NCBI GenBank assembly: GCA_964371245.1 | Contig: CAYJKP010000002.1 | Span: 257,469-321,468 of the forward strand | Source: an uncultured Gammaproteobacteria bacterium | GTDB taxonomy: Bacteria; Patescibacteriota; Patescibacteriia; JAHIZJ01 | DNA length: 64,000 nt | Direction of reading: 5' to 3' | Shown: in pieces, positions 6,601-45,159 of the stretch | Numbering within the stretch: the first letter of the stretch is position 1 | Layout of the letters: the number at the start of each line of letters is the position of its first letter | The notes under the pieces: model-generated | Told to the model about the DNA's origin: nothing | Databases searched by the model: none | Seen by the model: the letters and a program-made list of their open reading frames with translations, nothing else | Program-made: the position numbers and the translations under genes

Positions 6601-6666
6601 GAAAAGACCCTATAGGGGTCTTTTTCAGTAAATAAAAAGTACCGCTAAGCATTGCGGTATTTTTTC
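6601..6666. terminator. two adjacent terminator hairpins
   Basis: gaaaagaccctataggggtctttttc followed by gtaccgctaagcattgcggtatttttt; marks the host/island boundary. Confidence 0.6.
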
Positions 6667-6782
6667 ATCTAAAACTGGGGGGCCATCCGCCTCTGGCGAG
6701 ATGGGGAAAGGGGCATGCGCCCCAAGGGTGGAGCAGGAGCGACTTGATCGCTCATGCGCAACCCGCAGGGCGCTTTGACCCG

Positions 6783-6839
6783 TGGTGCGCAACGTGGAAC
6801 GAAGTCAGAACTTGGATCCGCGATACGACCGAGTACTTT
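6783..6839. repeat. 57-bp imperfect direct repeat, copy 1 (4 mismatches vs copy 2)
   Basis: tggtgcgcaaNgtggNacgaagtcagaacttggatccgNgatacgacNgagtacttt also present at 8483..8539. Confidence 0.85.
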
Positions 6840-7023
6840 CACATACCTGACTTATCGCCGCCACCGACTACAGCGATTAAACCATATGCTATTCCCTTGC
6901 GGTAGAGCGGGTAAAGTTTCGTTACCGCAACCACTTGTGCATGCCACCTTAACCTAAAGCGTTGGTGTCCTTGTTATTACACAATAAAAGGACCCACCGG
7001 GATGGCAGGTCAGGAACGAGCGA

Positions 7024-7449
7024 CTAGACGTCGTGAACGATGTGGAGGATGTTGGGCACTTGTGTCGGGGGTTCGCCGATCTGAGCGGCAAACGCGGCGA
7101 TGAAGTGCGGCGGGCACTGTACCGTCTTCCAGTGGCAGACGAAAGCTGGACGATCTCTCAAGTCGAGGGATAGTCGTTGAAACGCGAACTTCCCGTTTGG
7201 AACACCTGCCCCATAGCTGATGCTAGTCTGTAGGTCATAGAAGCGGCGATAGTTCCGCAGGTTGAGGCCTTCAGCTTCTGCGATAGCCGCGATGATATAT
7301 TCGGCGCCGCAAATGGTGTTAGGCCCTGCTGTCGAGTGCGGAGCAATTCCGCTAAACACGCAGCATCTACCCGGAAACATGGCGTAGACAAACCTGCCCG
7401 GACCACCCTCGTAGAACGTCAGTTCTTTGAGAACCACAGGGTCTGGCAT
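7024..7449 (-). CDS. hypothetical protein, tandem paralog A (MPD... N-terminus, FSGIAP / IAEAEG motifs)
   Basis: Strong RBS AAGGAGG; ~35% identity to the adjacent upstream gene. Confidence 0.55.
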   Translation of the reverse strand: MPDPVVLKELTFYEGGPGRFVYAMFPGRCCVFSGIAPHSTAGPNTICGAEYIIAAIAEAEGLNLRNYRRFYDLQTSISYGAGVPNGKFAFQRLSLDLRDRPAFVCHWKTVQCPPHFIAAFAAQIGEPPTQVPNILHIVHDV

Positions 7450-7480
7450 ATCCCTCCTTTCTTAGGGGGTATGCGTTGAT

Positions 7481-7897
7481 CTACAGATCGAACGCGTCCC
7501 TGACCTGCCGGGGTGGATGGCCGATCTGTTCGGCAAACACCCGGATAACGTCCTCTGAGCACGTCTCCCCGATCCAGCCGGAAACGAAGTACGGACGGAC
7601 GCCCCATTCGATGTTGAGCTGCGAAAAGGCGAGTTTTCCAGTAGGTGCTTTCGCCCGTCCGTAGCCCAGGCTGGTCTGGAGATCGTAGAAGAGGAATTGA
7701 CTCGGATCAATCCCTTCGGCTTCAGCGATTACCCGGACAATCCCTCCGGCGGCATTCACCGTTGAGGTGCGATTGTGAGGCGGCGTAATACCGCTGAAGA
7801 CGATCCGATTACCCGGAAGTCTGGCATAGACGACCCGCGACGTGCCCTGATTGAAGTTGCGATACTCAGCCTCTTTCAGTACAACCGTATCCGGCAT
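7481..7897 (-). CDS. hypothetical protein, tandem paralog B
   Basis: Start trimmed to the internal ATG (MPDTVVLKEAE) preceded by RBS AGGAGGGAGAT; paralogous to 7024..7449. Confidence 0.55.
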   Translation of the reverse strand: MPDTVVLKEAEYRNFNQGTSRVVYARLPGNRIVFSGITPPHNRTSTVNAAGGIVRVIAEAEGIDPSQFLFYDLQTSLGYGRAKAPTGKLAFSQLNIEWGVRPYFVSGWIGETCSEDVIRVFAEQIGHPPRQVRDAFDL

Positions 7898-8045
7898 ATC
7901 TCCCTCCTTTCCGATGATACAGAAGTACAAGCCACAATAGGCGCAAATGTATAACTTGTCAAGGTGGACACGTACAACACGCCTCACGACACGGAGATGT
8001 GTAACTTATGTTTGATACTATTCATGCCATTCTTGCCATGCAGGA

Positions 8046-8333
8046 TCATCGCATGGTAACAAGATTCGTGTATAAGGTTTTCGAGTGAGCGTTGAGGGTC
8101 TTGCGTAAGGACAATAGGCGTGCCATCGACGGTAGACGGTGGCCACATTCCCAAGCAGAGATGGTGCTGCGATTAGAACCCAAGACACCAGCGAGTGTTC
8201 GCTGGGTCCAGCCAAGACGAAGACGGTAGCTGCGGATAGTGTTGGGATAGCGCGCTTTCGTCTTCGTAAAGCGATGAGTGAATTGTGGACCCATGTATGT
8301 CCTAAAATATATTAGGCGACTACAATCGTTCAA
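8046..8333 (-). CDS. XRE-family helix-turn-helix transcriptional regulator
   Basis: YRLRLGWTQRTLAGVLGSNRSTISAWECGHRLPS matches the HTH_3 signature. Confidence 0.7.
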   Translation of the reverse strand: MNDCSRLIYFRTYMGPQFTHRFTKTKARYPNTIRSYRLRLGWTQRTLAGVLGSNRSTISAWECGHRLPSMARLLSLRKTLNAHSKTLYTNLVTMR

Positions 8334-8482
8334 GTCCCGCTTGCTCTGTGGACAATTGGTTCAGGACGTTCCCGATGCGGTACGTCTCCCATCCTGAGTT
8401 TAGACACACAAAAACCGCTCACCTAAGCGGTTCCCTTGTCTTTATCCCCATGGATGTGTTGCCTCTGTAACGTCTCCCATCA

Positions 8483-8539
8483 TGGTGCGCAAAGTGGGAC
8501 GAAGTCAGAACTTGGATCCGTGATACGACGGAGTACTTT
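8483..8539. repeat. 57-bp imperfect direct repeat, copy 2
   Basis: See 6783..6839; lies between the OLD nuclease stop and the XRE regulator start. Confidence 0.85.
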
Positions 8540-8666
8540 GCGATTCCGAACCTGGAAGAAACGAGCAATTGCCCACCGGCAAAGTCATTATCTCCCATCG
8601 ACCCATAATCTGGTAAGTAGGGGTGAGGTCGCGACTCTGGCACGTCCTGTGGGGGATGTGAGGCAT

Positions 8667-10529
8667 CTACTGCTCGAGTTTCTTCCCGATGGCCTCCAAC
8701 CAACCAACAACCTCCTTCTTCCCACCCCGTTCATCTATCCGCCCCGGCGTCATCGCGTCAACGGCCTCTGTATTCAGCCGTCGTTTTGCCTGGCACACCT
8801 TCTTACCCCGCACTTTCTCGGTCAGGTCGTTCCATGGGGTCTTATGCGGATCGGTCGCAGCGCTATGAGTGGCTTCCGCCACCAACTCTGGGACGTTGCA
8901 GTCGTCTGTCACAGTTACACAAACCGAGAGCTTTGCCTCTATCGCTTCAGCGTGGAGGTAGTTCTCAAGTTCTCGCTTGTTCGTAATGAATGCGATTGAT
9001 CCATCGCTACGCCCGTTCACGCTGTTTGCCTCGCCTTGGTATTTTGGTGGGTCATCTGATCCTCGATCGAACAAGTGGATTTCCGGTATTCCCAAGTTCC
9101 GCAGATAATGGGCGCGGACCCAATCGCGGAGGTTTTCCCCGCCGAGAGCAATGACCGCGATACGTGGATCATTCTCGATATCCGGCAACATAGGCGTTTC
9201 GGAACGGAGGCAGCGGCTCATGCGGGTAAGATGCTGGACATCGTTTGGTCCCTCTACACAGACAAGGACGCGAACGCGGCTGTCAGGGAGTACACCAAGG
9301 TCATCGGCCACTCGTCGATAGGTTGACTCATCGCCAACTTCGATCATGGTCGTGCCGTCGACCGTACGCGTAACGTGCCGAATGCTGCATACGGGAATGA
9401 GGCCCGCAAGTCCTGGGACGTGGGTCGTGAGGATCACCTGACATCCGTCGGTCGTTGCGAGATCCTGCAGAGCTTCAACAAGCATCTTCTGATTTTCAGG
9501 ATGCTGCGAGGCTTCAGGCTCCTCGATCGCATATATGATGCTCGCTTGTCCCTTCTCAAGTCGTCGGCGTTCTGCTTCGGCACGGAAGAAACTGAGCAGG
9601 ACGAGCCGACGAAGTCCGCTACCACGCTTATTCAGTGGAATACCATCATCGCTGTCGAGTGAAAGTTTGAAAATCGAATCCCACTTCGGTTCGTTCTTGA
9701 ACTTAGGTGTGAGAGCAGAGCCGAGTCTCGGGTCGAGCTCCTGGAGCTTCTTCAAAGTACGATCTGCTACTTTGAGAACGGAATCCTGCACCTTGGTCTT
9801 CACGCGTTCTAGGTCGGACATCATCTCCGCGACGGCCTGCTTGACAGCAACCTGCATGGGATCCTGGGCTTCCGTGTCCTCGTCTGTGCTTGGCCGATCC
9901 GCACGGAAAATCGCAAATGCGGGCAGCTGCTGGGAGAGCTGCTCCCATATTGCTTTGGCATCCTCCTTGTTGAGAGGGATCTCGGTCGGTTGAAGGCGCA
10001 GGTCTTCGATCGACGACCGGATGGCAGTCCGGAGGGCGGAGTTGCATCGAAGATCAACGTTGGATGTGCCCACCTTCAAATCCGAAGCACGCTTCTTCAG
10101 ATCGGTGTTCTTCAGAAGAAGGAGATCACCGGCACCCTGGGCGGTCGGGTGAAGTGCCGCGGCCCAGAACCCCCGGTCAGCCACCTTCCCGTCCTTACAC
10201 TCGAAAACCCTATGGATCTCAAGATCTCCATCCGCATTGAGAAGTAGCTCGGCTGAGAGCGTGGTCGTGGCTGTGGCATCGATCACCACCTTGTCGGGGA
10301 GCTCAGTAAAGATGCAGGCAATCCGAACCTCATGATCCGCCGCGTGGACACACTTGTCGCCAGCGTCAAGCTTCAGATTCGGAGCGCCCAAGAAAATTCC
10401 GATGGCGTCGAGGATGCTCGATTTACCAATGTCGTTCTTGCCCACGAGGGCGGTGAGGTCATCGATGGGTATTAGCGTATTGCCGCGATAACCGCGGAAG
10501 TTCTGTAGCTTTACGGCCTTTAATTTCAT
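8667..10529 (-). CDS. OLD-family ATP-dependent endonuclease (N-terminal ABC-type ATPase + C-terminal Toprim), stand-alone
   Basis: Walker A GKNDIGKSS, Walker B IIYAIEEPEASQHP, H-loop ILTTHVP; Toprim-like VLVCVEGPNDVQH ... AVIALGGEN ... LFDRGSDD. Confidence 0.7.
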   Translation of the reverse strand: MKLKAVKLQNFRGYRGNTLIPIDDLTALVGKNDIGKSSILDAIGIFLGAPNLKLDAGDKCVHAADHEVRIACIFTELPDKVVIDATATTTLSAELLLNADGDLEIHRVFECKDGKVADRGFWAAALHPTAQGAGDLLLLKNTDLKKRASDLKVGTSNVDLRCNSALRTAIRSSIEDLRLQPTEIPLNKEDAKAIWEQLSQQLPAFAIFRADRPSTDEDTEAQDPMQVAVKQAVAEMMSDLERVKTKVQDSVLKVADRTLKKLQELDPRLGSALTPKFKNEPKWDSIFKLSLDSDDGIPLNKRGSGLRRLVLLSFFRAEAERRRLEKGQASIIYAIEEPEASQHPENQKMLVEALQDLATTDGCQVILTTHVPGLAGLIPVCSIRHVTRTVDGTTMIEVGDESTYRRVADDLGVLPDSRVRVLVCVEGPNDVQHLTRMSRCLRSETPMLPDIENDPRIAVIALGGENLRDWVRAHYLRNLGIPEIHLFDRGSDDPPKYQGEANSVNGRSDGSIAFITNKRELENYLHAEAIEAKLSVCVTVTDDCNVPELVAEATHSAATDPHKTPWNDLTEKVRGKKVCQAKRRLNTEAVDAMTPGRIDERGGKKEVVGWLEAIGKKLEQ

Positions 10530-10684
10530 AAGGGGAATCTTAGTTGATTATGCCTGCGCGTCAAGCTAGCCCGCTGGAGCGTGCAGTTTGTAGTAGGGGA
10601 CGAGCGTGCTCTTTCCAGTAGGGGTGTAACAGGGGTAATATCAGGCAGTTACAGTCTAGCAGGTTTGTAGCTGTTCTTCGAGAT

Positions 10685-12634
10685 CTAGCGCAATACCACC
10701 TTGGTCCGTTCAAGAAAGGCTGCCAGTTTTGCCTTAAGCCGGCGATCGGTGGGTCGATGCCTGCTGCGCTCCCAATCCAGAACCGTGCTTGGATCAACCT
10801 CCAGCTGTCGGGCAATGTCCGCGTGGGAGAGGCCGAGCCGTCTTCGGGTCGCCCGGAGCTGCTCTCCAATCGTGGACCCGATCTCTGTAGGTTCGTAGCC
10901 TAGGAACCGAATCACTCCCGGGATCGCCCGGAGGTTTGGGGTAGCGGTTCCGACCTCCCAGTTATGGACCGTGGTCTTATCGACGCCGATCCGCAACGCA
11001 ACCTCCCGCTGGAGAAGTCCGAGGTCCAAGCGACGTTTTCGAACGTGGTCGCCGATCGACCGGAGTTCCGTAGGATACGCTCTATCAATGGGTTTCGGCG
11101 TTCGGAGCACGAGATCACAAAATGGCAACGCAGGGGTGACGTTGTGTTGCCCTTTTGTGACGACTTCCGAAGCCGAAGGGAGGTAGCAGAGGTGTATTTC
11201 GACGTCGCCTTTCCCAATCACGATCCGTTCGACGATGTGCTCCACGATCTGTCGCCGGTCTTCGACCGCCAGGGTGGACCATCGGGAATAGAGGTCTTTG
11301 GCCTCGGTCAGGATCTCATCTCGGGAGAGGTACTGGATCTTGAGGAAATCGACGTCTCCCTGGAGTTGTGGGAGCTCTTCCTCGATCTGCTTGAGACGCT
11401 CTTCGAGGGGGCGGTACTGCCTGCCGTACCCTTCGACGGTGATCGCGTCGCTCATATAGGCACGATGGACTTTATCCATCTCCCGGACGACTCGGTCCCG
11501 CTCGGTCTCCATGGTCTGGAGGGTCTCCTCCTTCGCTTTGATCTCCTGGTCGGCCTGGCCGAGGTGTGCCGCGATGTCCTCCGGGGAGAAGAAGAATCCC
11601 TTGAGCTGCTCCTCGAAGACGGTTTCGAGGTCCTCGATCGGGATCTTGTTGCGGCACTTCTGGCAGCCGTACTTTGTCGTCTTCGTGAGGACGTACATCT
11701 TCTGACCGCAGAAGCAGAAGACGAGACCGGCGAAGAGATGGACCGGCTTCTTCGCCTCGCGTTTGCCGTTCCGTCGCCGCTCATCGAGAATCGCGTTCGC
11801 CTGGAGCCAGATTTCTTCGGAGATGATTGGCTCGACTGGAGTTAGGACCCATTCATCCTGCGGCTTGAGCTTCCAGTTCTTCTTCTCGCCGAGGGACTTC
11901 GTGTAGTTCGCCCGGCGGATCCCCTTGGCCATCGGGTCCCGCAGAAGCCGGTCCACAGTTGTATCCGAGAACTTCGAGCCGTTCCGGGTCCGGTAGCCCT
12001 TCTCGTTCAGAAGCCGCGCTACGGCCTTCTTGCGTTTGTGCTCCAAGAAGAGTTCGTACATGAGCTTGCGGACCGGGGCTTCTTTCGGATCCGGGACGAG
12101 CTCCCGATTCTCCCATTGGTAGCCGAAGGGAGCGGCACCGCCGAGGGGCTTGCCGAGTTTCGCCCTGACGGGCACGGACGCCGCCACCCGTTCGGCGATC
12201 TCCTCCCGTTCCCACTGGGCCATCGCCGCGACGACCGTGAAGAAGAGCCGCCCAGCCGGGGTCGAAGTGTCGATCGCCTCCGAGAGGGAGATGAGGTCCG
12301 CCTCGTGATCCCGGAAGATGTCCGCGAACTCCAGAAGCTCTCGGGTGTTTCGGGCGAGCCGCGCGAGCTTCGAGAAGATGAGCGCCGTGATGTGACCACC
12401 TCGGATGTGCTCAAGCATTCGCTCGGTTTCGGGAAGCCCCATGACAGACTTTCCGGAGACCGCTTCGAGGTGGTAGACCTCGCGGACCCGCCAGCCTTTG
12501 GCCTCGGCATACATCCGCGCCCGCTTCTCATGATGTTCAGGACTTTCACCCCTCGCTTGGTCCTCGGTCGAGACGCGGATCCAGATCCCGACCTGCCTTT
12601 GAGTCTGCGGTTCTTCCTTTTGCTGCTTCTTCAT
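10685..12634 (-). CDS. large serine recombinase (resolvase/invertase catalytic domain + recombinase domain + zinc ribbon + coiled coil) fused to two C-terminal XRE HTH domains
   Basis: IWIRVSTEDQ catalytic Ser motif; CFCGQKMY...CQKCRNK zinc ribbon; C-terminal RKRRLDLGLLQREVALRIGVDKTTVHNWE and RRRLGLSHADIARQLEVDPSTVLDWE HTH repeats. Confidence 0.8.
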   Translation of the reverse strand: MKKQQKEEPQTQRQVGIWIRVSTEDQARGESPEHHEKRARMYAEAKGWRVREVYHLEAVSGKSVMGLPETERMLEHIRGGHITALIFSKLARLARNTRELLEFADIFRDHEADLISLSEAIDTSTPAGRLFFTVVAAMAQWEREEIAERVAASVPVRAKLGKPLGGAAPFGYQWENRELVPDPKEAPVRKLMYELFLEHKRKKAVARLLNEKGYRTRNGSKFSDTTVDRLLRDPMAKGIRRANYTKSLGEKKNWKLKPQDEWVLTPVEPIISEEIWLQANAILDERRRNGKREAKKPVHLFAGLVFCFCGQKMYVLTKTTKYGCQKCRNKIPIEDLETVFEEQLKGFFFSPEDIAAHLGQADQEIKAKEETLQTMETERDRVVREMDKVHRAYMSDAITVEGYGRQYRPLEERLKQIEEELPQLQGDVDFLKIQYLSRDEILTEAKDLYSRWSTLAVEDRRQIVEHIVERIVIGKGDVEIHLCYLPSASEVVTKGQHNVTPALPFCDLVLRTPKPIDRAYPTELRSIGDHVRKRRLDLGLLQREVALRIGVDKTTVHNWEVGTATPNLRAIPGVIRFLGYEPTEIGSTIGEQLRATRRRLGLSHADIARQLEVDPSTVLDWERSRHRPTDRRLKAKLAAFLERTKVVLR

Positions 12635-12644
12635 CGGACTACAC

Positions 12645-15600
12645 CTATTTCTTGTCGCCCTTCAGGCGTTTCATAGCCTTGGCGATCACCTGGGAGACCG
12701 CATCTCGTTTGGCGGTCTTGTCCTGCTCCGTAACCGACTTATACTTCACTTTCACTTTGTAACCGCGAACCGTCCCAGATGTGCTCGCGGCTTCAGCCTC
12801 GATTCCTTCGAGCACCGCGAACGCCTCCTCCGGAGTCGAGAAATGCACGCGCTTCAATTCATCTTCCGAGAGAGTATTCGCCGCGAGCTGTCTGATCTTG
12901 GTCAGCGCCTTCTTCTCGGATGACACGACCACGATTTGCTCGAATCCGGCCGCGAGGCACTTCTGTACATTCCCGAGTTCGTGGTCCGGTGTCGTCGTGA
13001 CCGCGATCTCGCAGGCGACAGATCGGTCGCCCTTCCGCAGGGCCACGTCCACGCTTCCGAGTCCGTCGAGGATCTTCTCCTCGATGGTTGCCCGCCACTC
13101 CCGAGACTCGGCCCAACGCTTCAGGAGTTCCTGCAGATACTTGTGCTGCTGACCACCCCGACCTGGAGTTGGTATAGCTGACGGCGGCAACTGGGGTGGC
13201 TCCGCCCGCTTCGGTCGTTCGGTACTGGTTGGCGTCGGGACCGGCGGGGAAGGTGCGAGGATAGTCGCGCTCTGCGGGACGGGCTCGGCAGGTCGGACCG
13301 GGACCCGGCCGGGAACGGAGCGCTGAAGGATCGCCTCGATCTCTTCCCGCCTCATCGCATACTTCTCGCGCGATTGGGAAATGACCGCATTCCTGCGGCT
13401 GCGAGCCTCTTGAGGATCGACCTCAGCAAGCCTCGGAGTATCGAGGTTGAAGTCGAATTCCGCCCGTTCGACCCTGGCGATGGCCTGGCCGATTCCGAGG
13501 TTCTGGAGGTCCTTGGCTTCATAGGAGGCGAAACCTTCATTGAGGGTACGGGCGTCCTGATCGCCCACCCGGAAACAGATCCTGGTATATGGATTCGACA
13601 GCACGGAGCTCAGAACCTCCGGGCTCTTGCTCCCGATTTGCCGGAGGTCCTGATGCGCCAGGACCAGACCCAGCCGGTACTTGCGCGCACCCGAAAGGAT
13701 CTGCTCCATCGTGGGCGTGACGAAGTTCTGAAATTCGTCGATGTAGACGTAGAATGGCCGGCGTTCAGCTTCAGCCACCTCCTGGCGGCTCATCGCTATC
13801 TGCTGAAGTTTGGAAACGAGGAGACTGCCAAGAAGATGCGCGTTCTCCTCGCCAATCGCACCTTGGGAGAGCCGGGCGAGGAGGATCTTCCCCTCATCCA
13901 TCATCCGGCGGAAGTCGAGCCGGTCATCCTTCTGCGCGACCATATATCGGATGAGTTTGGGTCGGAGAAACGTGTCGAGACGGGTGAGGATCGACGCCTG
14001 AGGATTCCCTTTGAGGAGCTGGAACTCCTTCTGCCAGTAGTACACGACGTCCGGATCACGGACGGTTGCGAGGAATTCGTCACGGAAACTCTTCTCCACG
14101 AGGAACCGGCGAAGATCGACGAGAGTGCCGCCCCGGTCGCTTTCGAGGAAGGCGAGGATCGCGTTCCCCAGAACCGAGGTCATCTGATCGCCCCACGAGG
14201 TGGAGAGCCTGCGGAAGACAGCGGCAAGATCGGAGGAGAGAAGCGTCTTTTCGAGCTCGGAGTGCGCCGAGAGTATGTTGAATCCTACCGAGTATTCGGT
14301 ATCGGCGGGATCGAAGAGGATGACGTCATCGATCCGCTCTTCCGGCACTCTCTCCAGGATCTGGTCGATGAGGTCCCCGTGCGGGTCTAGGACGGCGACA
14401 CCCTGGCCCGTCTTCAGATCCTGGAGGATGAGATTCAGAAGGAGCGTGGACTTGCCGGTGCCCGACGCACCGATGACGTACATGTGTCGGGACCGTTGAT
14501 CGGGAGTGAGTGCAACCTCCACGGTCTTTCCGGCATGAGCGTTTATGCCGAGAAGGAGCCCGGAACCTGTTGCGATCGCCGGCGCAGCCCGCGTCTTCCG
14601 TTGCTCGCGCTTCAGTTTCTCGACGCGGACCGAGGCCGAAGGCGGGTGAACCAAGGAGACGAGCTCCTCCGTGTTCAGAATCATTCCGCTCCGGCGGGAT
14701 CGCCGAAGAATGAAATCCTCCATGTGATCGGTGTTCTCGTACCCGTCGTTCGATAGTGGGATGAGCTCGTTTCCGGCCGGATTCCCGAAGGTCTTGAGGC
14801 TTCCACCGATGGCCCGGGCGAATTCCCAGACCCGTCCCGGATCGGGACTGGTGACTCCGAGCCTGACCACAGAGGCGAAGAGAGGGTGCGCAACCTTCGC
14901 CTTGGCCGCCGCCGCGATCTCGGGTGCATCGAAGAAGAAGGGGTTCCCCTCATCGTCCAGGGCCGAGTTCATGATGCTCTCGGCCCATGCATGCCGGACC
15001 GGCTGGAAGAGGATCTGCAGGACGGCGATCTCGCCCTCCTCGAGATCGGAAAGGGCCGACGTGACTCCGATCAAGGGGTCGATGTCGAAACCCTTGAAGG
15101 TCCGGAGCGGCAGCATGAATTCCCTGGAGAGCCCGAAGTCCACGATGATCGTCTGAGCTCCCTCAAGCTCGGCCCACTGGGACAGTAGGAATTCGGGTTC
15201 GCTGGTGATGACCACTTCGGGGAAGTGGCCTTTGAGCTGCTGGGAGATCTTGGAGGCGTCCTGTTCCCGCACCGCGACCTGGATTGTGATGGAATCCGGG
15301 AGGCCGATGACCTCATAGGAGAGCGGCCCCACGGCGACGGGAAGACTGCGCAGGAACTGCTCGACTGCTTCCCGGGCGACCTTGAACGGGGGTGGAACGG
15401 AGAGCCGCAACTCGGCGATCGGGAACTCATCCTCCAGTGCATCAGGTTCGGGCTCACGCACGTCGGCGATTGGCGCGTCGTCTGTCGGGGAGGTTCGTGG
15501 CTGACCCGTTACCAGGCTCCGAAGTCCGTCGGTGAGATTGCTGAGCAGGGTTGGCCTGCGGCCGTCATCGACCTTGGATCGGATCGGTGGGACCCGGTGC

Positions 15601-15779
15601 ATCCGAAATGGAGCGAACGGCGGTTCCAGCTCGACCGGATATGGAAAGACCTGCCAGCCCCGGCCGCGCTTTTCCCACGTGTAGAACTGTGCGGTAAGGC
15701 GCTCAATCTGAGTCGGGGGACCTCCCAGGACGGAGGTCTCTGCCTTCTCCCAGGGAATCAGATCCCGATCGTCTTCCAT
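12645..15779 (-). CDS. large FtsK/HerA/T4CP-like P-loop ATPase with unknown N-terminal region and possible C-terminal nuclease-like domain
   Basis: Walker A GASGTGKST, VLDPHGDL (DPKGD-like), Walker B YIDEFQNF, ARKYRLGLVLAHQ arginine-finger region typical of TraD/VirD4/HerA; C-terminal RSVACEIAVTTTPDHELGN... may be a PD-(D/E)xK-like fold. Confidence 0.55.
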   Translation of the reverse strand: MEDDRDLIPWEKAETSVLGGPPTQIERLTAQFYTWEKRGRGWQVFPYPVELEPPFAPFRMHRVPPIRSKVDDGRRPTLLSNLTDGLRSLVTGQPRTSPTDDAPIADVREPEPDALEDEFPIAELRLSVPPPFKVAREAVEQFLRSLPVAVGPLSYEVIGLPDSITIQVAVREQDASKISQQLKGHFPEVVITSEPEFLLSQWAELEGAQTIIVDFGLSREFMLPLRTFKGFDIDPLIGVTSALSDLEEGEIAVLQILFQPVRHAWAESIMNSALDDEGNPFFFDAPEIAAAAKAKVAHPLFASVVRLGVTSPDPGRVWEFARAIGGSLKTFGNPAGNELIPLSNDGYENTDHMEDFILRRSRRSGMILNTEELVSLVHPPSASVRVEKLKREQRKTRAAPAIATGSGLLLGINAHAGKTVEVALTPDQRSRHMYVIGASGTGKSTLLLNLILQDLKTGQGVAVLDPHGDLIDQILERVPEERIDDVILFDPADTEYSVGFNILSAHSELEKTLLSSDLAAVFRRLSTSWGDQMTSVLGNAILAFLESDRGGTLVDLRRFLVEKSFRDEFLATVRDPDVVYYWQKEFQLLKGNPQASILTRLDTFLRPKLIRYMVAQKDDRLDFRRMMDEGKILLARLSQGAIGEENAHLLGSLLVSKLQQIAMSRQEVAEAERRPFYVYIDEFQNFVTPTMEQILSGARKYRLGLVLAHQDLRQIGSKSPEVLSSVLSNPYTRICFRVGDQDARTLNEGFASYEAKDLQNLGIGQAIARVERAEFDFNLDTPRLAEVDPQEARSRRNAVISQSREKYAMRREEIEAILQRSVPGRVPVRPAEPVPQSATILAPSPPVPTPTSTERPKRAEPPQLPPSAIPTPGRGGQQHKYLQELLKRWAESREWRATIEEKILDGLGSVDVALRKGDRSVACEIAVTTTPDHELGNVQKCLAAGFEQIVVVSSEKKALTKIRQLAANTLSEDELKRVHFSTPEEAFAVLEGIEAEAASTSGTVRGYKVKVKYKSVTEQDKTAKRDAVSQVIAKAMKRLKGDKK

Positions 15780-15787
15780 GGTTCACC

Positions 15788-16498
15788 CTAGCCACGCAGA
15801 AAATCCCGCATGATTGGCTTCTTCTCTTCGTCCGTCAGAGCCCGCAGCCCCTTCGCCGTTGTGAGGCCATCGATGACCTCGGTCACCGCGGAGTGCATCG
15901 CCGACTGGAACATGAGCATCGTGTCGATGCGATAGTAGGTAAGCGGACGGAAGAACCGCTCATAGAGCGGCCCGAGGAGCGGGACCGCCAGGATTGGATC
16001 ATCGGCATCCATATCGAGTGCCTTGGTAGCGGCTCGATAGACGTACCAAACGACGATGAGGGTCACAAGCGTGATGAGAAGTCGTATCAGGAAGTACGGG
16101 CCACGGATGTGTTGACCGTGCCGGCCGAGTTGCATGAGAATATTCACGATTCCGCTGTGGACCGCGTAGTAGGCGACGAGAGTACCGAGGAGGATCGCCC
16201 AGCAAAGCCATCTTGGCGGGCGCTTCTCTCCCACCCACCACGAAAAAAAGAACCCCGTCCCGAAGGGCGCGGCGCAGAGGTCGAAGGCGAGCTTCTGCCT
16301 GGTGACGCGAAGGTACTCCCGCTTGGCGGAGAGGACCCCGCCCTCGTGCCAGTCCACCCGTGACGTGGAGATCCCGGGGGTCTGACGGCGTTGGAGCGCC
16401 GCCTCGACGGAGGTATAGAAGTCGAGCGCGGACGTCTGGAAGTTGTCGTAGGGCTTTTGCCAATGCGAGAACAGATTGGCCAACAAGGGCTTAGGCAT
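15788..16498 (-). CDS. hypothetical integral membrane protein, translationally coupled to the downstream ATPase
   Basis: 236 aa, about 4 TM helices; stop 8 nt before the ATPase start. Confidence 0.45.
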   Translation of the reverse strand: MPKPLLANLFSHWQKPYDNFQTSALDFYTSVEAALQRRQTPGISTSRVDWHEGGVLSAKREYLRVTRQKLAFDLCAAPFGTGFFFSWWVGEKRPPRWLCWAILLGTLVAYYAVHSGIVNILMQLGRHGQHIRGPYFLIRLLITLVTLIVVWYVYRAATKALDMDADDPILAVPLLGPLYERFFRPLTYYRIDTMLMFQSAMHSAVTEVIDGLTTAKGLRALTDEEKKPIMRDFLRG

Positions 16499-16579
16499 GC
16501 GACCTCCCTTCTCTGATGGATCCTATCGATAGTCGAGGATACGTCTATACGATAAGCAACGCAAGGGGTTGCGTTGCCA

Positions 16580-19500
16580 CTACGACTCCGCCCAGCCCTG
16601 GGAGAGTACTTCCGCCTGCTCAAGGACAGTTTGTGTCGCCTTCTCTTGCTTGTCCGGTGGGTAGCCATATTTGCGCAGGATGCGCTTGACGATCGTTCGC
16701 AGGTGCGCGCGCACATTCTCCCGCTGGGTCCAGTCGATCGTTACGTTGCTCCGAACGGAATCCACCAGTTCGCGGGCAATCGTGCGGAGCGTTTCGTCTC
16801 CAAGCACTTGCACAGCACTATCATTGACGCCGAGCGCATCGTAGAACGCTACTTCGTCCTCGTTGAGTCCGAGCTTCTCCCCGCGCTGGTTCGCCTTGCG
16901 CATCTCCTTGGCAAGACCGATCAGCTCCTCAATGACTTGAGCTGTTTCGATGGCGCGATTTTGGTAGCGTCGGATGGACTGCTCAAGTAGCTCAGCGAAG
17001 GAACGGGCCTGAACAACGTTCTTCAGGCGCCGGCTTCGAATCTCCCCGCTGAGCAGCTTGCGCAGCAGTTCGACGGCGAGGTTCTTCTGCGGCATCCCCC
17101 GGATCTCGGTCAAGAACTCGTCCGAGAGGATTGAGATGTCGGGCTTCTTGAGACCCGCGGCGGCGAAAATGTCCACGACTTCGTCGGAGGCGACCGCCTC
17201 GGAGACGATCTGTCGAATCGCGTGCTCGATCTCCTCGGGGGACTTGCGGTCGCCGGGCACGTTCTTCACCAGCACCGAGCGCACGGCTTGGAAGAATCCC
17301 ACATCGTCGCGGATTCGGATAGACTCCAAGTGCGGAACAGCCAGGGCAAACGCCGCCGACAGTTCGCCTACGGCTTGAACAAGCCGATTCTTGCCGTCCG
17401 GCTGGGTCAGAACGTGCTCCTGTGCGATAGGCAGCAGGCTGAGACGATCCGCCGGCTTGCCGTCCTTCCATTTCGTCCACTCAAAGCCGTGGAAGATACC
17501 GCAGCAGATCTCATACTTCTCAAGCATGACGGAGACGGCCTCACTCTGGTCAATCGTAGTGTCACCCTTGCCGCCACTCTCGGTGTAGTTTGCGAGTGCC
17601 TTGCGGAGCTCATCAGCGAGCCCGAGGTAGTCGACGACCAAACCGCCCGGCTTGTCCTTGAAGACACGGTTGACACGGGCAATCGCCTGCATGAGTCCGT
17701 GGCCCTGCATCGGCTTGTCGATATACATAGTGTGGAGGCAAGGCGCGTCGAATCCGGTCAGCCACATGTCGCGCACGATCACGATCTTGAACGAGTCCGC
17801 CGGATTCTTGAACCGCTCCGCCAGCGTCTCACGTCGGGCTTTGTTACGGATGTGCTCCTGCCAGTCTTCCGGGTCGGCGGCCGCACCGGTCATCACGACC
17901 TTTACCACACCCTTGTCGTCGTCCTCGTTGCGCCAATTGGGCCGCAGAGCGACGATGGCGTCGTAGAGTTCGACGCAGATGCGCCGGCTCATGCACACCA
18001 CCATAGCCTTGCCGTCAATTGCGGACAGGCGTTGCTCGAAGTGACTTATGAGATCCGCAGCGATGATATTGATTCGCTTCTCGGTGCCGACCAATGCCTC
18101 GAGTTGGGCCCACCTCGTCTTCAGCTTCTCCTTGTGTGAAACCTCCTCGCCTTCAGTGGCCTCCTCGAATGCCGCATCAAGCACAGCATGTTGGCTGTTC
18201 CTCAATTCGAGCTTGGCGAGACGGCTTTCGTAGTAGATCGGCACAGTCGCACCGTCTTGGACCGCACGCTGGATGTCATAGACGGAGATGTAGTCGCCGA
18301 ACACTGCCCGTGTGTTCTTGTCCGTCAGCTCGATCGGCGTGCCGGTGAATCCTATGAATGAGGCGTTAGGCAGGGCGTCGCGCATGTGCCGCGCGAACCC
18401 GTCGATAAAGTCGTACTGGCTCCGGTGTGCTTCGTCGGCGATAACAACGACATTTCGCCGGTCTGAGAGCAGCGGGTGCATGTCCCCGCGTTCTTCGGGG
18501 AAGAATTTCTGAATCGTAGTAAAAATCACACCCCCAGCGTCGCGGTGCAGTAGCTGTCGCAGCTGAGAGCGGCTTTCGGCCTGATCGGGAGGCTGACGTA
18601 AAAGGTCTCTGCAGCGGGAGAAGGTTCCGAAGAGTTGCCCGTCCAAGTCATTCCGATCAGTGAGGACCACGATGGTTGGATTACGCATTTCCGGCTGAAG
18701 CACAACCCTGCCCGCATAGAAAGCCATGGTCAGGCTCTTGCCGGACCCTTGAGTGTGCCAGACGACGCCGATCCGACGATCACCGGGTTTCGCCTGGTTC
18801 GATTCTTGGTCGCGGCGCTCGTCTCGACCGTCGCCGATCCGGTCGGAACTCTCAGCTATAGCCGCGCGGAGGGTCTCCTCCACTGCTACGTTGACCGCAT
18901 GGTACTGGTGGTAACCAGCCATCTTCTTTAGCAGCAGCCCGCCGCCCATGTCCTCGAACACGAGAAAGTACCTGATGAGATCGAGAAATCGACGCTTCTC
19001 GAAAATGCCTTCGATGACCACCTGGGCCTCCGGTAGACGCCGATCGGCAAGCTCCCCTCCGGTGATCGTGCGCCAGGGCATGAACCACTCGCGTTCAGCC
19101 GTAAGAGTCCCCACTCGGGCCTGGACGCCATCCGAGATGATGAGTGCTTCGTTGAAGGCAAATAGAGACGGGATTTCCCGCTTATATGTTTGAAACTGAC
19201 GAAAGGCAGACCAGATTGTTGCCATCTCATCTGCCGGATTCTTGAGTTCGATCGCAGCAAGCGGGAGGCCGTTGACGAACACGACGACATCGGGTCGCCG
19301 GTTGTTCCGGTTCTCCATCACAGTGAACTGATTAACAACGAGCCAATCGTTGTTGTTGGGATTCATGTAGTCAAGAAGCTGCGCTTGCGCACCTGCGATC
19401 GTCCCATCTGGACGGCGGTACTCGACTGTGACGCCGTCGACAAGCATCAAGTGTGCGGCATGGTTAGTTGTGACCAGCAGAGGCGACGTTATCCGAGTTA

Positions 19501-19720
19501 CCTTCCGAAATGCTTCATCGACCGCGTCGCCCGGGAGATCGGGGTTCAGTCGCGTCAGCGCGGAGCGAAGGCGATCCTCAAGGATGACCTGGCTGTAATC
19601 GGACCTTTCAGAGCTCGGTTCCCCCGGGGCCATGTCTGGACCGAATCGCGTGCCGTAGCCAAGCCCATCAAACCAGATCAGCACGGCGTCCTCTACTTCA
19701 GATTCGATGAATTTCGTCAT
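16580..19720 (-). CDS. hsdR: type I restriction enzyme R subunit HsdR
   Basis: HsdR N-terminal domain ([22 protein letters not shown]), SF2 helicase motifs ([15 protein letters not shown]), C-terminal T1RH-like region. Confidence 0.9.
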
Positions 19721-21671
19721 ACTATGCGCTTTATCTCATAAATCTCTTGGTTGTCAGGACCCTCGTCCAGAGCAAGACCTGTGGCCGCTGCTTCGCGTTT
19801 GATCAACCATCTGAGGGAGTAGTTCCGTACTCTTTCATACAGACCTTTGACCGTCGACCCAACTACGAGATTGGCCAGAGAAACAAGAACAAGAACACCA
19901 GAACCACAGGTGAGTACCCATCCGACTAAGACATTACTTGAACGAAGACCGAGACCCACGGCAAAGCCAGCTATCAGCAGCATTCCAATAAAGCCAGACA
20001 CTAACCTTGCGCAGTTCCTCGCTCTTCTCCAACACCGCCAATAGAGCCGCTCTTGCACCTGCTTATTTCCTGCAAGTGCAGATACCAGGGCCTCCCGGGT
20101 TCTCTTATGCTCGGTCTCCTCCGCGGTGAGCTTTTCAGTCTCCTCTCTTTTCATCTCGGTTGACACCCTGCGAAGTGTCTCAGCGACTGTTTCCTCAGTC
20201 AAGGCGTCTTCGTCTCCGAGCGTCAGGCGCATGAGCTCTTCTTGTGCAAGCGCGCTACTCCGCAGTAGTTGATGGTCGCGCGCCGTTATCTTCCCTAGTT
20301 TCTGCAGCCTGTTGATCTCGGCCAGGTACTTGCAGAGGAGCTCCTTTGATGGTTGCAGTGCCGCATACGAAAACGCCAGGATTTCAGTAGTTGGAAGAGT
20401 CGGAGCACCCATTGGCGCTTTGAGCCATGCCATGTTTGCCAAGCTGAAGTCGGTGATTACGCTCGACACCTCACGCGATTCCTCATGCCTCTGCCCGTAT
20501 TCCCACGCCGCCCGAGCAAAACCAGAATTGCTGGTCACAAACACCGCTCGGCATTTTTCGACCGTGGCCGGCGCCGTGTGCGCTCTCAGTGCGTAGATAC
20601 TACGCACTGAGTTGATATCATAGTCTTTGGCTCGCGGATTGAAATACGACACTTCGTCGTCGAGGACCTTCTCAAATATTCTTTCGTCGATCTGGAAATC
20701 AGGTATGTACTGCGGTGTGTCCTTCACGTCGATTTGCGCTTCTGCAAGCTTCTCATCTACCTGCCCCGCCATCAGAAGGAGGTCCGACCTAGTGGTGCCG
20801 TTTCGCCGTGCTTCCGTGACAATGGCCCCGCGGCCGGCCTCTCCATCCACGTGGTCCGCGGCACCTTTCAGCACGCGTACAAGTTCATCTCGCGAGTGTG
20901 CGAACGCAGCCACCGTAGCCCCGAGGTTACCAAGCAACGAGACCAGGTCTGCAACCGAAGCCCTTCGCGGTTCGCCTTCGAGGCCAAGTCGGCGAACCAG
21001 TAGCGGGGTATCAAGGTAGAATGTCACGCCGCTATATGACATTGGCGCGTTCTGCAGGTCTGGGCATAGTAAGCCGTTGGCGAGCATGTTCCCTTGCACC
21101 ATGATCATGAAGCTCTCAAAACGCTCTGGGTCGCGGTCCTGGATGTGTAAGACATACTGGCTGACTAAGATGATATCGCTCTCTCTCTTGACCTCCACGG
21201 TAGGAATCGCTGACCCTTGTAGATACGCGCGGAGACATACGATGCTGGACTGACCCAGGAACGTGCATATGGCAGTCACAGCGTCATCGATAATGGTGAC
21301 CTCTCTAGGCGTGCTTCTCGAGAACTCCATCAGACCGGACACCACTGCTTTGATATGGCGATCGGCTTGGCTCTTCTTTGCAAGGATACCGGGATCAGGC
21401 AAGATACCTGCAATGTGATAGACTCCCGCTTCCTTTCGTAATGGGTACGCCCGGGAGAGACGTCTAAGCACTACTTGTATGGCGCGTTCTGGAATTGCCA
21501 GCCCATACTGCGTACGGATGTGATCTCTAACACCCCGGTCCGTTATCGGGTCGGGCTTGTGGTCGACAAGGACCTGTAGAATAAACGGGCGAAGATAGTC
21601 AAGATAGTCCCTACCGTGGTCAACGTTGACTTTCAGCATCGCCAAACTGGTAAGGGTTGCGGTTGTGGACA

Positions 21672-21672
<1 letters not shown>
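19717..21672 (-). CDS. unknown 651-aa protein embedded in the type I R-M operon, C-terminal double TM anchor
   Basis: Overlaps the hsdS stop by 1 nt and the hsdR start by 4 nt; no P-loop; two C-terminal TM helices; occupies the PrrC/RloC position. Confidence 0.5.
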
Positions 21673-22956
<1,284 letters not shown>

Positions 22957-22973
<17 letters not shown>

Positions 22974-24507
22974 GTTTCTTTAGATTGGCAGCGATTGCGG
23001 CATCGAGGGTTGCTGTGTCTTTCTGCTGCTCTCGCAATGCCGTGGTGAGCCGTTTTATCTTTTCGTTGAACGGTTCTCCATCGTCCAACAGCTCTTCAGC
23101 GCCGACGTAGCGACCAGGTGTGAGCACGTGACCGCGCTTCCGGATCTCTTCCAGGTTCGCGCTTTTGCAGAACCCCAGGAGGTCTCCGTACTTCTTCTTT
23201 ACATCCTTGTCTCCGCGCCAAGCATGATAGGTGTCCGCGACCCTTGCGATGTCTTCGGACGTGAGCTCTCGATGCACGCGGTCGATCATCGTTCCAACCT
23301 CTCGAGCATCGATGAAGAGCACCTCGCCCCGTCGGTTACGGAAGCGACCGTTTTCTCTGTTCCGCGTCAGGAACCAAAGGCACACTGGGATTTGCGTGGA
23401 ATAGAAGAGCTGCCCAGGAAGGGCGATCATGCAATCGACGAGATCGGCCTCGATAATCGCTTTGCGGATCTCACCCTCCCCTGACTGGTTCGATGACATG
23501 GAGCCATTGGCGAGCACAAAGCCGGCGAGTCCAGTGGGCGCAAGATGGTAAATGAAATGCTGGACCCAGGCGAAGTTCGCGTTGCCAGGAGGCGGGATGC
23601 CGTACTTCCAGCGCTTGTCGTCTTTGAGGAGATCCCCGCGCCAGTCGCTGTCATTGAAAGGAGGGTTGGCAAGGACGTAGTCGACCTTAAGGTCCGGGTG
23701 CCGGTCGTTATGGAAGCTGTCGCCCTGAGTGATGTTCCCTTCGATCCCGCGAATCGCGAGGTTCATCTTGCAGAGCCGCCATGTAGTGTAGTTCGACTCC
23801 TGGCCAAAAACGCTGATTTGCCCGATGCGGCCACCATGTTCCTCCATAAATCGCTCGGATTGGATGAACATGCCGCCGGAGCCGCAGCAGGGGTCGTAGA
23901 CGCGGCCCTTGTAGGGTGCGAGCATGGCGACGAGGAGCTGAACGACGCACCGCGGCGTATAGAATTGACCACCCTTTTTCCCCTCGGCGCTTGCGAAACG
24001 AGAAAGGAAGTATTCATAGACTCGACCGAGTATGTCCTTCGAGCGGTTCTCTTTGTCACCGAGTCCGAGGTTCGTGATGAGGTCGATGAGTTGGCCAAGT
24101 CGTTGCTTGTCGAGCCCGGGTCGCGCATAGTCCTTCGGGAGCACACCCTTTAGACTTGGGTTGTCTCGCTCGATCGCGGTCATCGCGTCGTCAACAATCT
24201 TGCCGATTGCCGGCTGTTTTGCGGTGTCCTTGAGCTTGGACCATCGCGCTTCCTCCGGAACCCAAAAGACATTCGCCGCACGATACTCATCCGGATCCTC
24301 GGGATCAGCCCCCTGGCGACGTTCCTGGTCAAGCTGAAGACGACGCTCCTCGAAAGCGTCGGAGATGTATTTGAGGAAGATGAGACCGAGGACGACGTGT
24401 TTGTACTCCGCTGCGTCCATGTTGTTGCGGAGGGCATCAGCCGTAGCCCAGAGTTCAGCCTCGAAGCCGATATTGCCTCCGTTGTTTTTTGCTTTCGTTC
24501 GAGCCAT
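22957..24507 (-). CDS. hsdM: type I R-M DNA methyltransferase subunit HsdM (N6-adenine)
   Basis: HsdM_N motif ([36 protein letters not shown]), catalytic NPPF (VLANPPFN); start set at ATG 24507, excluding a spurious 120-aa N-terminal extension. Confidence 0.85.
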
Positions 24508-24713
24508 GGATTCACTCCGTATTCTGGGTGCGTCCTTTGTTAGTAGCACGGAAATTGGGAGGGCCTCCGCACCCTCCGGCATATTAGTTAATGTATTGCA
24601 GCCCAACGTATTAGCGCCCTTTACAGTACAAGATTCCGGGCCATTCGTCAAGCTAAACTCCTGCTGTAAGTTACGAAGCCGGAGACTGCACATGGGGCAG
24701 TCTCCGGCTGAGA

Positions 24714-25442
24714 TCAGAGCGCGAGCGCGCTCCGAAAGGTGCTGGAGAGCCTGAGCCCAGAGTCCATTTGGATCCTGGGGCTTCTGGATTTCTGGACCTC
24801 GGTGAAGGCATTGAAGAGCGACCAGGCAGTTCGAGGAATGAACTCTCCGTGAGTCGGTTTCTCCCATGCTTCGATCACCTTCGGCAGGTTCGAGGCCGGG
24901 AGGACGTTCCTCCGAACGGCTTCGACCATGAGATGGTCGGCCATCTCTGGCGAGAGACCCCGTTCCTTCATTGCCGCGATCTCTCCGTGGATCCGGCTCT
25001 GCATCGACGAGACCTTCGAGAGCATCCGGTAGATCAGGTCGGGGAGATCCCGGAACACGTTGATCGTGTGCTTCCGCGCCGCGCCGACTTCGCCCGAGAA
25101 GGCAAGGTTGTCACAGCAGAAGACTCGGCTTCCCGCGACCAGACTCACCGAGAGGGACCGGTCGTAGGAGTTGCGAAGCCCGATGGCGAGCGCGTAGTCG
25201 GGATGACCCCCACCGTTCGTACAGGTTAGGACCCCGAACATCTGGAGCCCTTCGTGCGCGAGGCCGAACCGCTGCTCTGTGATCGTGAGCCCGAAGCGCG
25301 GAATGTGCAGCTCGACCTCCTCGACGAACCGGGCATAGGGTACCGGCACGTACGAATCGGTCTCCTCGGGAACCGCGACGGCTGCGAGATCGACTTTGGT
25401 CGCCTCCCAGCCGCCACGATGCAGGACAAGCTGACCGGACAT
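24714..25442 (-). CDS. hypothetical protein (mobile-element associated; possibly DUF932-like)
   Basis: 242 aa, no clear motif; located between the recombination module and the R-M operon. Confidence 0.3.
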
Positions 25443-25463
25443 GTGACGAGATCTCCTTTCTCC

Positions 25464-25892
25464 TCAGAGGAGCAGACCTTTCTCTCGGAAGGACAGGAAC
25501 GAACCGTTCCCGCCCACGATGACGTGATCGAGGACGTCGATCCCGACGAGCCGTCCCGTGTCCACGAGCCGATTCGTGATCTCGACGTCGTCGTCCGAGG
25601 GACTTACGTCTTCGGACGGGTGGTTGTGCGCGAGGATCATCGCGGCGGCGGAGGCCACGATGGCCGGCCGGAAGACCTCGCGAGGATGAACGATCGAGGC
25701 CGAGAGGCTTCCCACCGAGACTGTCTCGATGCCGAGCACCGTGTGGCGGCTCGTGAGGAGCACGACGATGAAGTGTTCGCGCTTTGCGTCCTTGAGCGAG
25801 CGCGCGAGGAGCTTCGCAACATCCTCGGGGCGCGTGACGGCCGGTGGTTTCTTCCCCCGGTAGTGACGGGTCCGCAGTTCGGCGACGTACAT
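25464..25892 (-). CDS. radC: RadC-like JAB/MPN domain protein
   Basis: AHNHPSEDVSPSDDDVEITNRL matches the JAMM HNHPSG motif; start trimmed to MYVAELR preceded by RBS AGGAGGA. Confidence 0.7.
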   Translation of the reverse strand: MYVAELRTRHYRGKKPPAVTRPEDVAKLLARSLKDAKREHFIVVLLTSRHTVLGIETVSVGSLSASIVHPREVFRPAIVASAAAMILAHNHPSEDVSPSDDDVEITNRLVDTGRLVGIDVLDHVIVGGNGSFLSFREKGLLL

Positions 25893-25997
25893 AGGGTGAA
25901 TCCTCCTGGTTGTCGAGCGAGAAGAAGCGGGCCTCCAGGGAATTCCCCAAAGGCCCGGTGGTGGTTGCACGAAGCGCAGAGAACGGCGGATAGGCAG

Positions 25998-27417: not shown

Positions 27418-27534
27418 TTCTGAACCTCCTTTGTGAAGGAACTGGTGGGAAATGAGAGAGGAGCGAGAGGGTGTTCCCATCCTTCACGATACGGAGGTCC
27501 GGAGGTTGGCCGTAGAGAGGGAGAGGTTGCGGAG

Positions 27535-28062: not shown

Positions 28063-28230
28063 AGGTGTTGATTCGTAATGAGGTCAAGGTAGAGCCCTCC
28101 CGAAAGGAACCGTCCGGCCTCGCGCGTCTTGCTGGCGGATGAGGCGGACGGCGGCAGTCCGCAAGAGATGCTGCCTTCCGAAGGAACGGGATCAGCCGAA
28201 GAATCGGCTGCGGGAGGGCTGGTTTGTAAC

Positions 28231-30137: not shown

Positions 30138-30295
30138 GTACTCAAGATACCGACCCGAACGAAAACCGAACAGAGGGGGAAAGGTGCATAACCCATCACA
30201 TCCTGTGGATACCGGAGAAAACGCCCATAAAACGCGCTGGATTTGGCACCTCTCCCCTCCTACGGAAACGGATCCAGGTATGGGATTGTAAGAAC

Positions 30296-45110: not shown

Positions 45111-45159
45111 ATCAGCTCTTCGTTATCAGAATAGCGCGTCGGCGCGCCACTGTCAATTG

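Follow-up and report, generated by a model that had tools for sequence, protein, structure and literature searches.

Classical large serine integrases usually carry their phage attachment site (attP) in an intergenic position beside the integrase gene (int), and their bacterial attachment site (attB) typically lies in a protein-coding gene. In the myxophage Mx8, the int gene of which encodes a tyrosine integrase, attP is located in the 3' part of int, and integration at a tRNA gene swaps the C-terminus of the integrase for host-encoded residues; the functional effect of this swap has been studied in Mx8. In the SSV1-type integrases of archaea, attP lies within int, and integration at a tRNA gene partitions int into parts that border the element (PMC3293823). 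The present study concerns a stretch of 64,000 nucleotides (nt) from contig CAYJKP010000002.1 (positions 257,469 to 321,468, hereafter the window), in which an earlier sequence-only reading had pointed out two imperfect direct repeats of 57 nt, A and B, around three small genes, namely a regulator gene of the XRE family and the paralogous genes P2 and P1. From our point of view, it is likely that these repeats are coding remnants of the C-terminal tail of a serine integrase, which mark two integration junctions and neither delimit nor regulate the three genes.

Coding content of the repeat pair

The two repeats are real, since copy A (6783-6839) and copy B (8483-8539) agree at 53 of 57 bases. 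Their ends are sharp, the flanks of either copy show no mutual similarity, and A and B are the sole copies within the window, where the 22-nt core that is identical between them is matched twice compared to an expectation of zero derived from 100 shuffles. No match to this core was obtained in species-representative genomes or in JGI metagenomes. In contigs of the same organism from other samples, 28 repeat occurrences were found, in which both copies are invariant with the exception of one copy-B variant.

Read on the plus strand, both repeats translate into WCA(T/K)W(N/D)EVRTWIRDTTEYF, with the peptide WCATWNEVRTWIRDTTEYF for repeat A and WCAKWDEVRTWIRDTTEYF for repeat B. The encoded motif, W-C-x-x-W-(D/N)-E-V-R-T-W-I-R-D-T-T-E-Y-F, is conserved at the C-terminus of one particular family of large serine recombinases (LSRs), that of the integrase LSR2 encoded further downstream in the window. 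The family set used here comprises 120 database homologues, all of which align over their full length with the exact 488-aa body of LSR2 (51-70% identity), and 103 of them carry the contiguous tail xW(C/W)....(D/E)VRTW(I/L)(Q/R)DTTEYFx(I/L)P(D/N)L. A profile built from these 103 outside tails, and hence from no sequence of the window, was searched against all 2148 six-frame fragments of the window and returned the fragments 8471-8605(+) (E 1.2e-14) and 6636-6902(+) (E 1.1e-13), followed by a next best match at E 0.42. Within the tail frame, the four differences between A and B are either synonymous (CGC/CGT and ACC/ACG) or conservative (T/K and N/D), and the similarity between A and the LSR2 tail outlasts the 57 nt at the protein level, where AIPNLEE..PP is aligned with HIPDLS..PP (23 of 38 residues identical, tblastn E 1e-14). 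The copy-B variant mentioned above, which occurs on one contig among loci L001-L027, has two substitutions (GCA to TCA and GGG to GTG) that would replace A by S and W by C in the tail.

The strand of this coding sequence also bears on the proposal that the 57-mer is a repeated cis-regulatory or small RNA, for example a terminator-proximal structure on the minus strand. Each copy follows a minus-strand gene and precedes a terminator-like hairpin, and copy A folds better than its shuffles (z -2.3 to -2.6), as one would imagine for such an element. However, copy B folds no better than shuffled sequence (z -0.15 and -0.4), and of the four substitutions on the plus strand two break predicted pairs and two leave a G-U wobble, such that none is compensatory. 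The Rfam search with the 57-mer that had been recommended as a check gave no match over the repeats, neither at gathering thresholds nor at E <= 10, and in the folding of the 357-nt segment that surrounds repeat A (see below) both strands score alike. With the substitution pattern and the profile match both indicating protein coding on the plus strand, opposite to the three genes, we regard an RNA function of the repeats as extremely improbable. A weak in-frame similarity of the repeat to the catalytic-serine motif at the N-terminus of LSR1, another recombinase of the window (12560-12592, WIRVSTE compared to WIRDTTE in the repeat, blastn E 0.17), was judged to be a chance match after the tail homology had been found.

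The split integrase gene and the island beside tRNA-Leu

LSR2 possesses a Resolvase catalytic domain with the active-site serine (Pfam, E 1.3e-17; N-terminus ..VIYARKSTESEDRQ..) and a Zn_ribbon_recom domain (E 4.7e-12), and most of its homologues carry a precomputed PF07508 Recombinase assignment. Its likeness to these relatives ends just before the tRNA-Leu gene, at the right border of a 23.6-kb genomic island. In line with this, a profile made from the 28 residues ahead of the tail motif matches, within the window, only the LSR2 body and ends at 32097, and the frame of the integrated gene continues to 32187 through the antisense of tRNA-Leu, resulting in a protein of 520 aa with a foreign tail of 32 aa. 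The missing 44-codon tail of LSR2, which includes repeat B, is found at the left border of the island, 23.6 kb away. When position 32088 is joined to 8474, the frame is kept (..QMIADAGS followed by LPSWCAKWDEVRTWIRDTTEYFAIPNLEETSNCPPAKSLSPIDP and a stop codon) and an open full-length gene for 532 aa in the normal form of the family is obtained, the join region of which (..QMIADAGS followed by LPSWCAKWDEVRTW..) agrees with the family consensus. An alternative join within the shared TGGTGC is also in frame.

The borders of the island were derived from L028, an island-free contig from a related strain that was reached via a 90%-identity relative of a flanking protein. L028 is collinear with the window on both sides (80-93% identity), up to position 8473 and again from 32089, and this empty site places the borders between 8473 and 8474 and between 32088 and 32089. 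In window orientation, the order in L028 is a 122-aa gene, a terminator, one P1-like gene, a promoter, a hairpin, ~66 nt, and tRNA-Leu(gag). Homology to L028 hence resumes 9 nt ahead of tRNA-Leu, and repeat B starts 9 nt inside the left end of the island. Across the island stretch, the G+C content rises from ~0.50 to 0.55-0.65.

As body and tail occupy opposite borders of the island, right and left, respectively, and join in frame, the simplest reading is that attP lies within the LSR2 reading frame. As such, the LSR2 element would carry its attachment site inside the 3' part of its own integrase gene; integration beside tRNA-Leu would split the gene and swap the conserved tail for a peptide read from the tRNA antisense, and excision would restore the LSR2 gene. 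To judge from the sequence, the predicted attP junction of the circle is ..GATGCAGGCTCT joined to CTCCCATCATGGTGCGCAAAG.. (or the variant joined within TGGTGC), and the predicted empty attB is ..TGTAACGT joined to AGTAGCGACTGGTGCCCAGG... The native flank downstream of tRNA-Leu, which ends at the left border, is read as the host-side (B) arm of the left attachment junction (attL) of the present island. The left island arm ctcccatcaTGGTGCGCAAAGTGGGAC matches the tRNA-side arm agtagcgacTGGTGCCCAGGGCGGGAC at 14 of 18 positions after a 9-nt spacer, and the crossover probably fell within ~15 nt, namely 8474-8488 on the left and 32089-32103 on the right. It cannot be fixed to one point because in L028 (~7600-7630, window orientation) 18 extra nt, tagcggaatattaaaaac, are present at the predicted attB crossover, between ..TGTAACGT and AGTAGCGAC. 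These extra nucleotides look like a partial duplication of the neighbouring GTAGCG.

Two further candidates for the nature of the repeats were rejected. That TGGTGC.. corresponds to ..GCACCA prompted the idea of a displaced tRNA 3' fragment; no tRNA model matched at E <= 10, and local alignment gave p = 0.03-0.3. In an end-anchored comparison, 13-14 of 22 positions match, compared to 8-13 for the other tRNAs, which is statistically weak. A dyad-symmetric serine-integrase site centred in the 57-mer was discarded with a symmetry of 15/23 in A and 11/23 in B and a required 'B arm' that is absent from L028.

Repeat A and the genes XRE, P2 and P1

Repeat A resembles repeat B in being a detached tail with its start at the Trp codon. 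It lies in the middle of a 357-nt segment that is absent from L028, and its left flank is homologous to the spacer directly 3' of the tRNA-Cys(gca) gene of the window (Table 1). The alignment of flank and spacer scores 25, compared to 3.4 +/- 2.1 for 2000 dinucleotide shuffles (z = 10.4) and to 1-6 for the flanks of six other tRNAs, and the integrase-body profile finds no match in this left flank. An orphan tail fused to a tRNA-Cys-like flank therefore points to an attL-type junction that is the relic of a different integration, one at a tRNA-Cys gene, with the flank read as the host-side (B) arm of the old attL junction. Since the flank is only ~60% identical to this genome's own tRNA-Cys spacer, repeat A probably originates from another genome.

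Copies A and B thus stem from two separate events. Because both events targeted minus-strand tRNA genes, the two tails share the same orientation and therefore appear as direct repeats around the three genes, which they bracket by historical accident and not as the ends of a cassette. An 8-bp direct repeat, ATAAAA(A)G (~6620-6629 and 6981-6990), borders the segment around repeat A on both sides; it could be a target duplication or a microhomology used for deletion in L028. Terminal inverted repeats were not seen in this segment, and no further copies of it were found in the window, in plasmids or in phages.

The sequence-only reading had described the flanking of the three genes as exact and had suggested a small inserted or duplicating module. 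It is correct that the repeats bracket XRE, P2 and P1, which are the only genes enclosed and all lie on the minus strand; the fit is, however, not exact, as gaps of 184 nt (A to the P1 stop) and 188 nt (XRE start to B) remain. A small mobile or duplicating cassette with the repeats as its ends, either as att sites or as a target duplication, would agree with the direct orientation, with the content of the bracket and with the fact that the region is an insertion/deletion hotspot compared to L028. In addition, XRE resembles the regulators of LSR2-type elements, and the genes may once have sat in an element with repeat A as its left end. Several observations nevertheless contradict such a cassette. 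L028 contains neither repeat and no tail relic, yet P1 is in place; the 23.6-kb island includes repeat B, whereas repeat A sits in an indel of its own, of 357 nt; positions 8400-8473, between XRE and repeat B, are native flank of tRNA-Leu; and no hybrid junctions exist among the 28 repeat occurrences in other samples. It is also established that large serine integrases do not generate long direct repeats. The repeats are therefore, in our view, very improbable as the termini of a 1.7-kb cassette, and what stands of the module interpretation is that mobile DNA gave rise to the region.

Over its full length, the XRE protein is homologous to the regulator encoded beside LSR2 (29859-30137(-), 41% identical, E 2e-21) and is 53% identical (E 4e-22) to the regulator beside an unsplit integrase of the family on another contig (L057, 3270-3515). 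This homology to regulators beside LSR2-family integrases hints that the block from repeat A through P1 and P2 to XRE is what an older element of this type has left behind. Repeat A may hence have been carried in with this older element, with XRE, P2 and P1 as its remains.

The paralogy of P1 and P2 is borne out by 45% identity (E 8e-34) and by the motifs listed in the sequence-only reading, which are common to both, and it also holds that the two proteins fit no nameable family, as Pfam, NCBIfam, PHROGs, PADLOC and PDB sequences gave no match. A full HMMER search, however, recovered 443 cluster representatives (50% clustering), 310 of them below 1e-10 and mostly of 115-150 aa. The few that have source names are from candidate phyla of the Parcubacteria type and from one Asgard archaeon; most are unnamed metagenome proteins, and some carry C-terminal TPR repeats. 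Conserved in the family are Y24, S45-T46-x-N48, E51, E61, D72-x-Q74-T75 and W108, within the motif set Y..Y, FSG, STINAAE, E, FDLQT, W and CP. The AlphaFold2 model of P2 reaches a mean pLDDT of 92.7, and Foldseek searches with this model gave no significant match in PDB or BFVD. Family members with an apparent tandem of domains were considered as a sign of a P1-P2 complex; this was rejected as the two-domain look is that of one domain with an insertion.

It had further been proposed that the genes form a toxin-antitoxin or immunity-like pair under XRE control. If XRE, P2 and P1 were such a module, or one with a function in defence, XRE would repress the P2-P1 operon and the repeats would be irrelevant. 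The operon is indeed preceded by a sigma-70-like promoter just downstream of XRE, XRE weakly matches helix-turn-helix (HTH) models of the antitoxin type, albeit below their cut-offs, and the P1/P2 family has many conserved polar residues and occurs in contexts rich in mobile elements, sometimes fused to TPR. However, P1 and P2 match none of the models for toxins, antitoxins or defence proteins, the fold searches were negative, and conservation gives the proposal no support: in six other loci the homologues are single genes with no HTH neighbour, some of them among transposase, integrase or conjugation genes, and L028 keeps one, apparently chimeric gene and no XRE. We hence regard a module of this kind as improbable. 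As a best guess, made with low confidence, P1 and P2 are accessory cargo of mobile elements.

The L028 gene in question (L028 7807-8229) occupies the same position as P1 in the absence of the repeats and is 60% identical to P1 and 41% to P2. Its first ~45 nt and its promoter align better with P2 and its body is like P1, which suggests a P2::P1 chimera formed by deletion between tandem paralogues. The P2-P1 tandem is therefore probably the older state.

Table 1. Features of the window discussed in the text (positions in the window; left empty where no strand applies)
Feature	Positions	Strand	Basis and remarks
Orphan LSR2-family tail (repeat A)	6783..6905	+	Tail profile; after the repeat the frame runs HIPDLSPPPTTAIKPYAIPLR to the stop at 6903-6905
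Detached LSR2 3' end (with repeat B)	8474..8608	+	Encodes LPSWCAKWDEVRTWIRDTTEYFAIPNLEETSNCPPAKSLSPIDP, stop 8606-8608; in-frame join to 32088
LSR2 body, 488 aa, Resolvase and Zn_ribbon_recom	30625..32088	+	Pfam, profile of upstream residues
tRNA-Leu(gag), intact	32098..32183	-	3' end TGGTGCCCAGGGCGGGAC on the plus strand, 14/18 positions as at the start of repeat B
Genomic island beside tRNA-Leu, 23.6 kb	8474..32088		L028 synteny break, Pfam/PADLOC, gene tables, raised G+C
Native flank downstream of tRNA-Leu	8400..8473		Hairpin ACACAAAAACCGCT..AGCGG, then ..TGTAACGT; directly adjoins tRNA-Leu in L028
357-nt segment absent from L028, repeat A mid-segment	6630..6982		In blastn against the window, the L028 alignment breaks off at 6625 and resumes at 6983
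Repeat A left flank	6660..6782	+	Homologous to the spacer directly 3' of tRNA-Cys(gca), in register with the tRNA CCA end/TGG
tRNA-Cys(gca) (42827-42900) and downstream spacer (42700-42826)	42700..42900	-	Spacer related to the repeat A left flank
P1, 141 aa, uncharacterised alpha/beta family	7024..7449	-	Terminator-like hairpin 7011-6991
P2, 138 aa, P1 paralogue	7481..7897	-	31 nt upstream of P1; sigma-70-like promoter 7962-7934
XRE-family HTH regulator, 82 aa	8046..8294	-	Pfam HTH_3 (PF01381), E 9e-11, above cut-off

To the left of the repeats, the host genes are two tRNA genes and the gene of a 122-aa membrane protein with its terminator. One neighbouring protein has a close homologue that is recorded for a bacterium of the Patescibacteria group. 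On its minus strand, the island encodes an AAA_15 ATPase (AriA/GajA-like), LSR1, a TraG/HerA-like NTPase, a type I restriction-modification system, DUF932, PD-(D/E)XK nuclease and RuvC-like genes and an HTH regulator, followed by LSR2 on the plus strand. LSR1 (10685-12634) is a second, unrelated large serine recombinase of 649 aa with two C-terminal HTH domains of the XRE type, and it stands in an operon-like row between the TraG/HerA-like NTPase (DUF8128, mad8-like) and the AAA_15 ATPase. The cargo of the defence type, namely the AriA/GajA-like ATPase, the mad8-like NTPase and type I hsdR, hsdS and hsdM, spans 8667-24867 and includes a 651-aa gene of unassigned function (19717-21672) between hsdR and hsdS. 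Outside the island, a cobalamin riboswitch is located at 44939-45140 (-) (Rfam, 73.9 bits).

The LSR2 family and its relation to known systems

Fusions of the kind seen in LSR2 recur in its family. Tails that read through a tRNA are present in seven proteins (P0183, P0228, P0232, P0249, P0251, P0259 and P0280), among them P0183, the cluster representative of the window's own LSR2 (99.8% identical), and P0251, the gene of which adjoins tRNA-Arg such that its Trp codon falls exactly on the CCA end of the tRNA. In other, more distant homologues, the frames read into, or adjoin, opposite-strand genes of tRNA-His, tRNA-Ser and tRNA-Trp. The residue after the Trp appears to vary with the tRNA end, as WC occurs together with ..GCACCA in two fusions read at the DNA level, and WQ and WW occur in other fusions, seen as protein only. 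This recurrence supports a systematic site rather than an accident. Metagenome homologues of the unsplit kind (loci L040, L041, L043, L048 and L049) end in ..SW.A.VEDVRT(F/Y).., and no relatives of LSR2 were found in viral contigs.

Several points weigh against the idea that LSR2 is split at an attachment site of its own and that both repeats are tails left behind at junctions. In this population no empty site was found, as every contig with the flanking genes also has the island, and neither an excised circle nor, for any of three junction variants, a record of the reconstituted LSR2 protein was found. The four half-sites share no common motif; only P' and B' are alike (14/18), the P and B arms are not. 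Furthermore, L028 favours a crossover 9 nt 5' of TGG, at the outer end of the range given above, whereas the repeat A junction and the tRNA fusions favour the TGG itself. In most members of the family (103 of the 120) the gene is unsplit, and the 1.33-Mb contig L057 has one such gene in a syntenic module with no tRNA nearby, such that an attP within the gene may not apply to the LSR2 family as a whole. With respect to repeat A, the idea does not account for the presence of a tRNA-Cys-like junction between the 122-aa gene and P1, nor for the abrupt drop in DNA identity directly 3' of the 57 nt, within which it amounts to 93%. The codon use shows the same step, since the same codon is used at 12 of the 14 identical non-Trp residues in the 57-nt block and all of the next three identical residues differ in codon. 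A conversion tract, a recombination breakpoint or a constraint at the DNA level are possible explanations for this block.

One could speculate beyond this locus that the LSR2 family represents a widespread family of bacterial large serine integrases that insert at tRNA 3' ends via an in-frame attachment site, with integration swapping a conserved tail of ~40 residues for a tRNA-antisense peptide and excision restoring it. The result would be a built-in, integration-dependent switch, the serine counterpart of the SSV type, with orphan tails as its fossil markers. We put this forward tentatively, as a possibility that we would not yet call probable. If true, the tail switch might control directionality or silence the integrated integrase. 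The conserved tail is a clear candidate for studying the control of integration and excision.

At the level of the window, the puzzle posed by the sequence-only reading resolves in an ordinary direction, namely into scars of mobile elements. An integrase-tail motif far from any integrase body can be taken as a marker of the far border of an island or of an old scar, which could help to delimit islands in the genomes of uncultured bacteria. LSR2 further suggests that there are serine integrases which insert at tRNA genes and thereby divide the integrase gene itself, and such integrases, together with their natural tRNA-adjacent sites, are of interest as tools for genome engineering. Lastly, the mobile-element cargo of unassigned function is extended by the well-folded family of P1 and P2, which has no named relatives.

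In the literature searched, the coverage of which is incomplete, splitting at a tRNA is described for the genes of tyrosine integrases only; we came across no serine integrase of this kind. As in the SSV1-type systems, the LSR2 body and tail border an island beside a tRNA gene, and attP apparently lies within the integrase frame. LSR2 shares this arrangement and is not a member of the type, since it is a serine and not a tyrosine recombinase. In contrast to SSV1-type integrases, LSR2 loses only its last 44 codons and keeps the catalytic and DNA-binding domains in one piece, tRNA-Leu is intact and without a duplicated segment, and the host is not an archaeon but a bacterium of the Patescibacteria group. 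The tyrosine-integrase islands at tRNA genes (Islander signature) likewise lie at a tRNA 3' end and have a short repeat at the far end, whereas the far-end marker here is a piece of the integrase gene and not a tRNA fragment, its 14/18 resemblance to the tRNA being statistically weak. With phiC31, Bxb1 and A118, LSR2 has in common the Resolvase domain followed by recombinase and zinc-ribbon regions, the position of the integrase gene at one end of the element and an integration that leaves no long duplication; it differs from them in its target, a tRNA 3' end or flank, and in the apparent location of attP in the reading frame. Finally, as in Mx8, the C-terminus of LSR2 would be replaced on integration at a tRNA gene, in this case, unlike in Mx8, in a serine recombinase.

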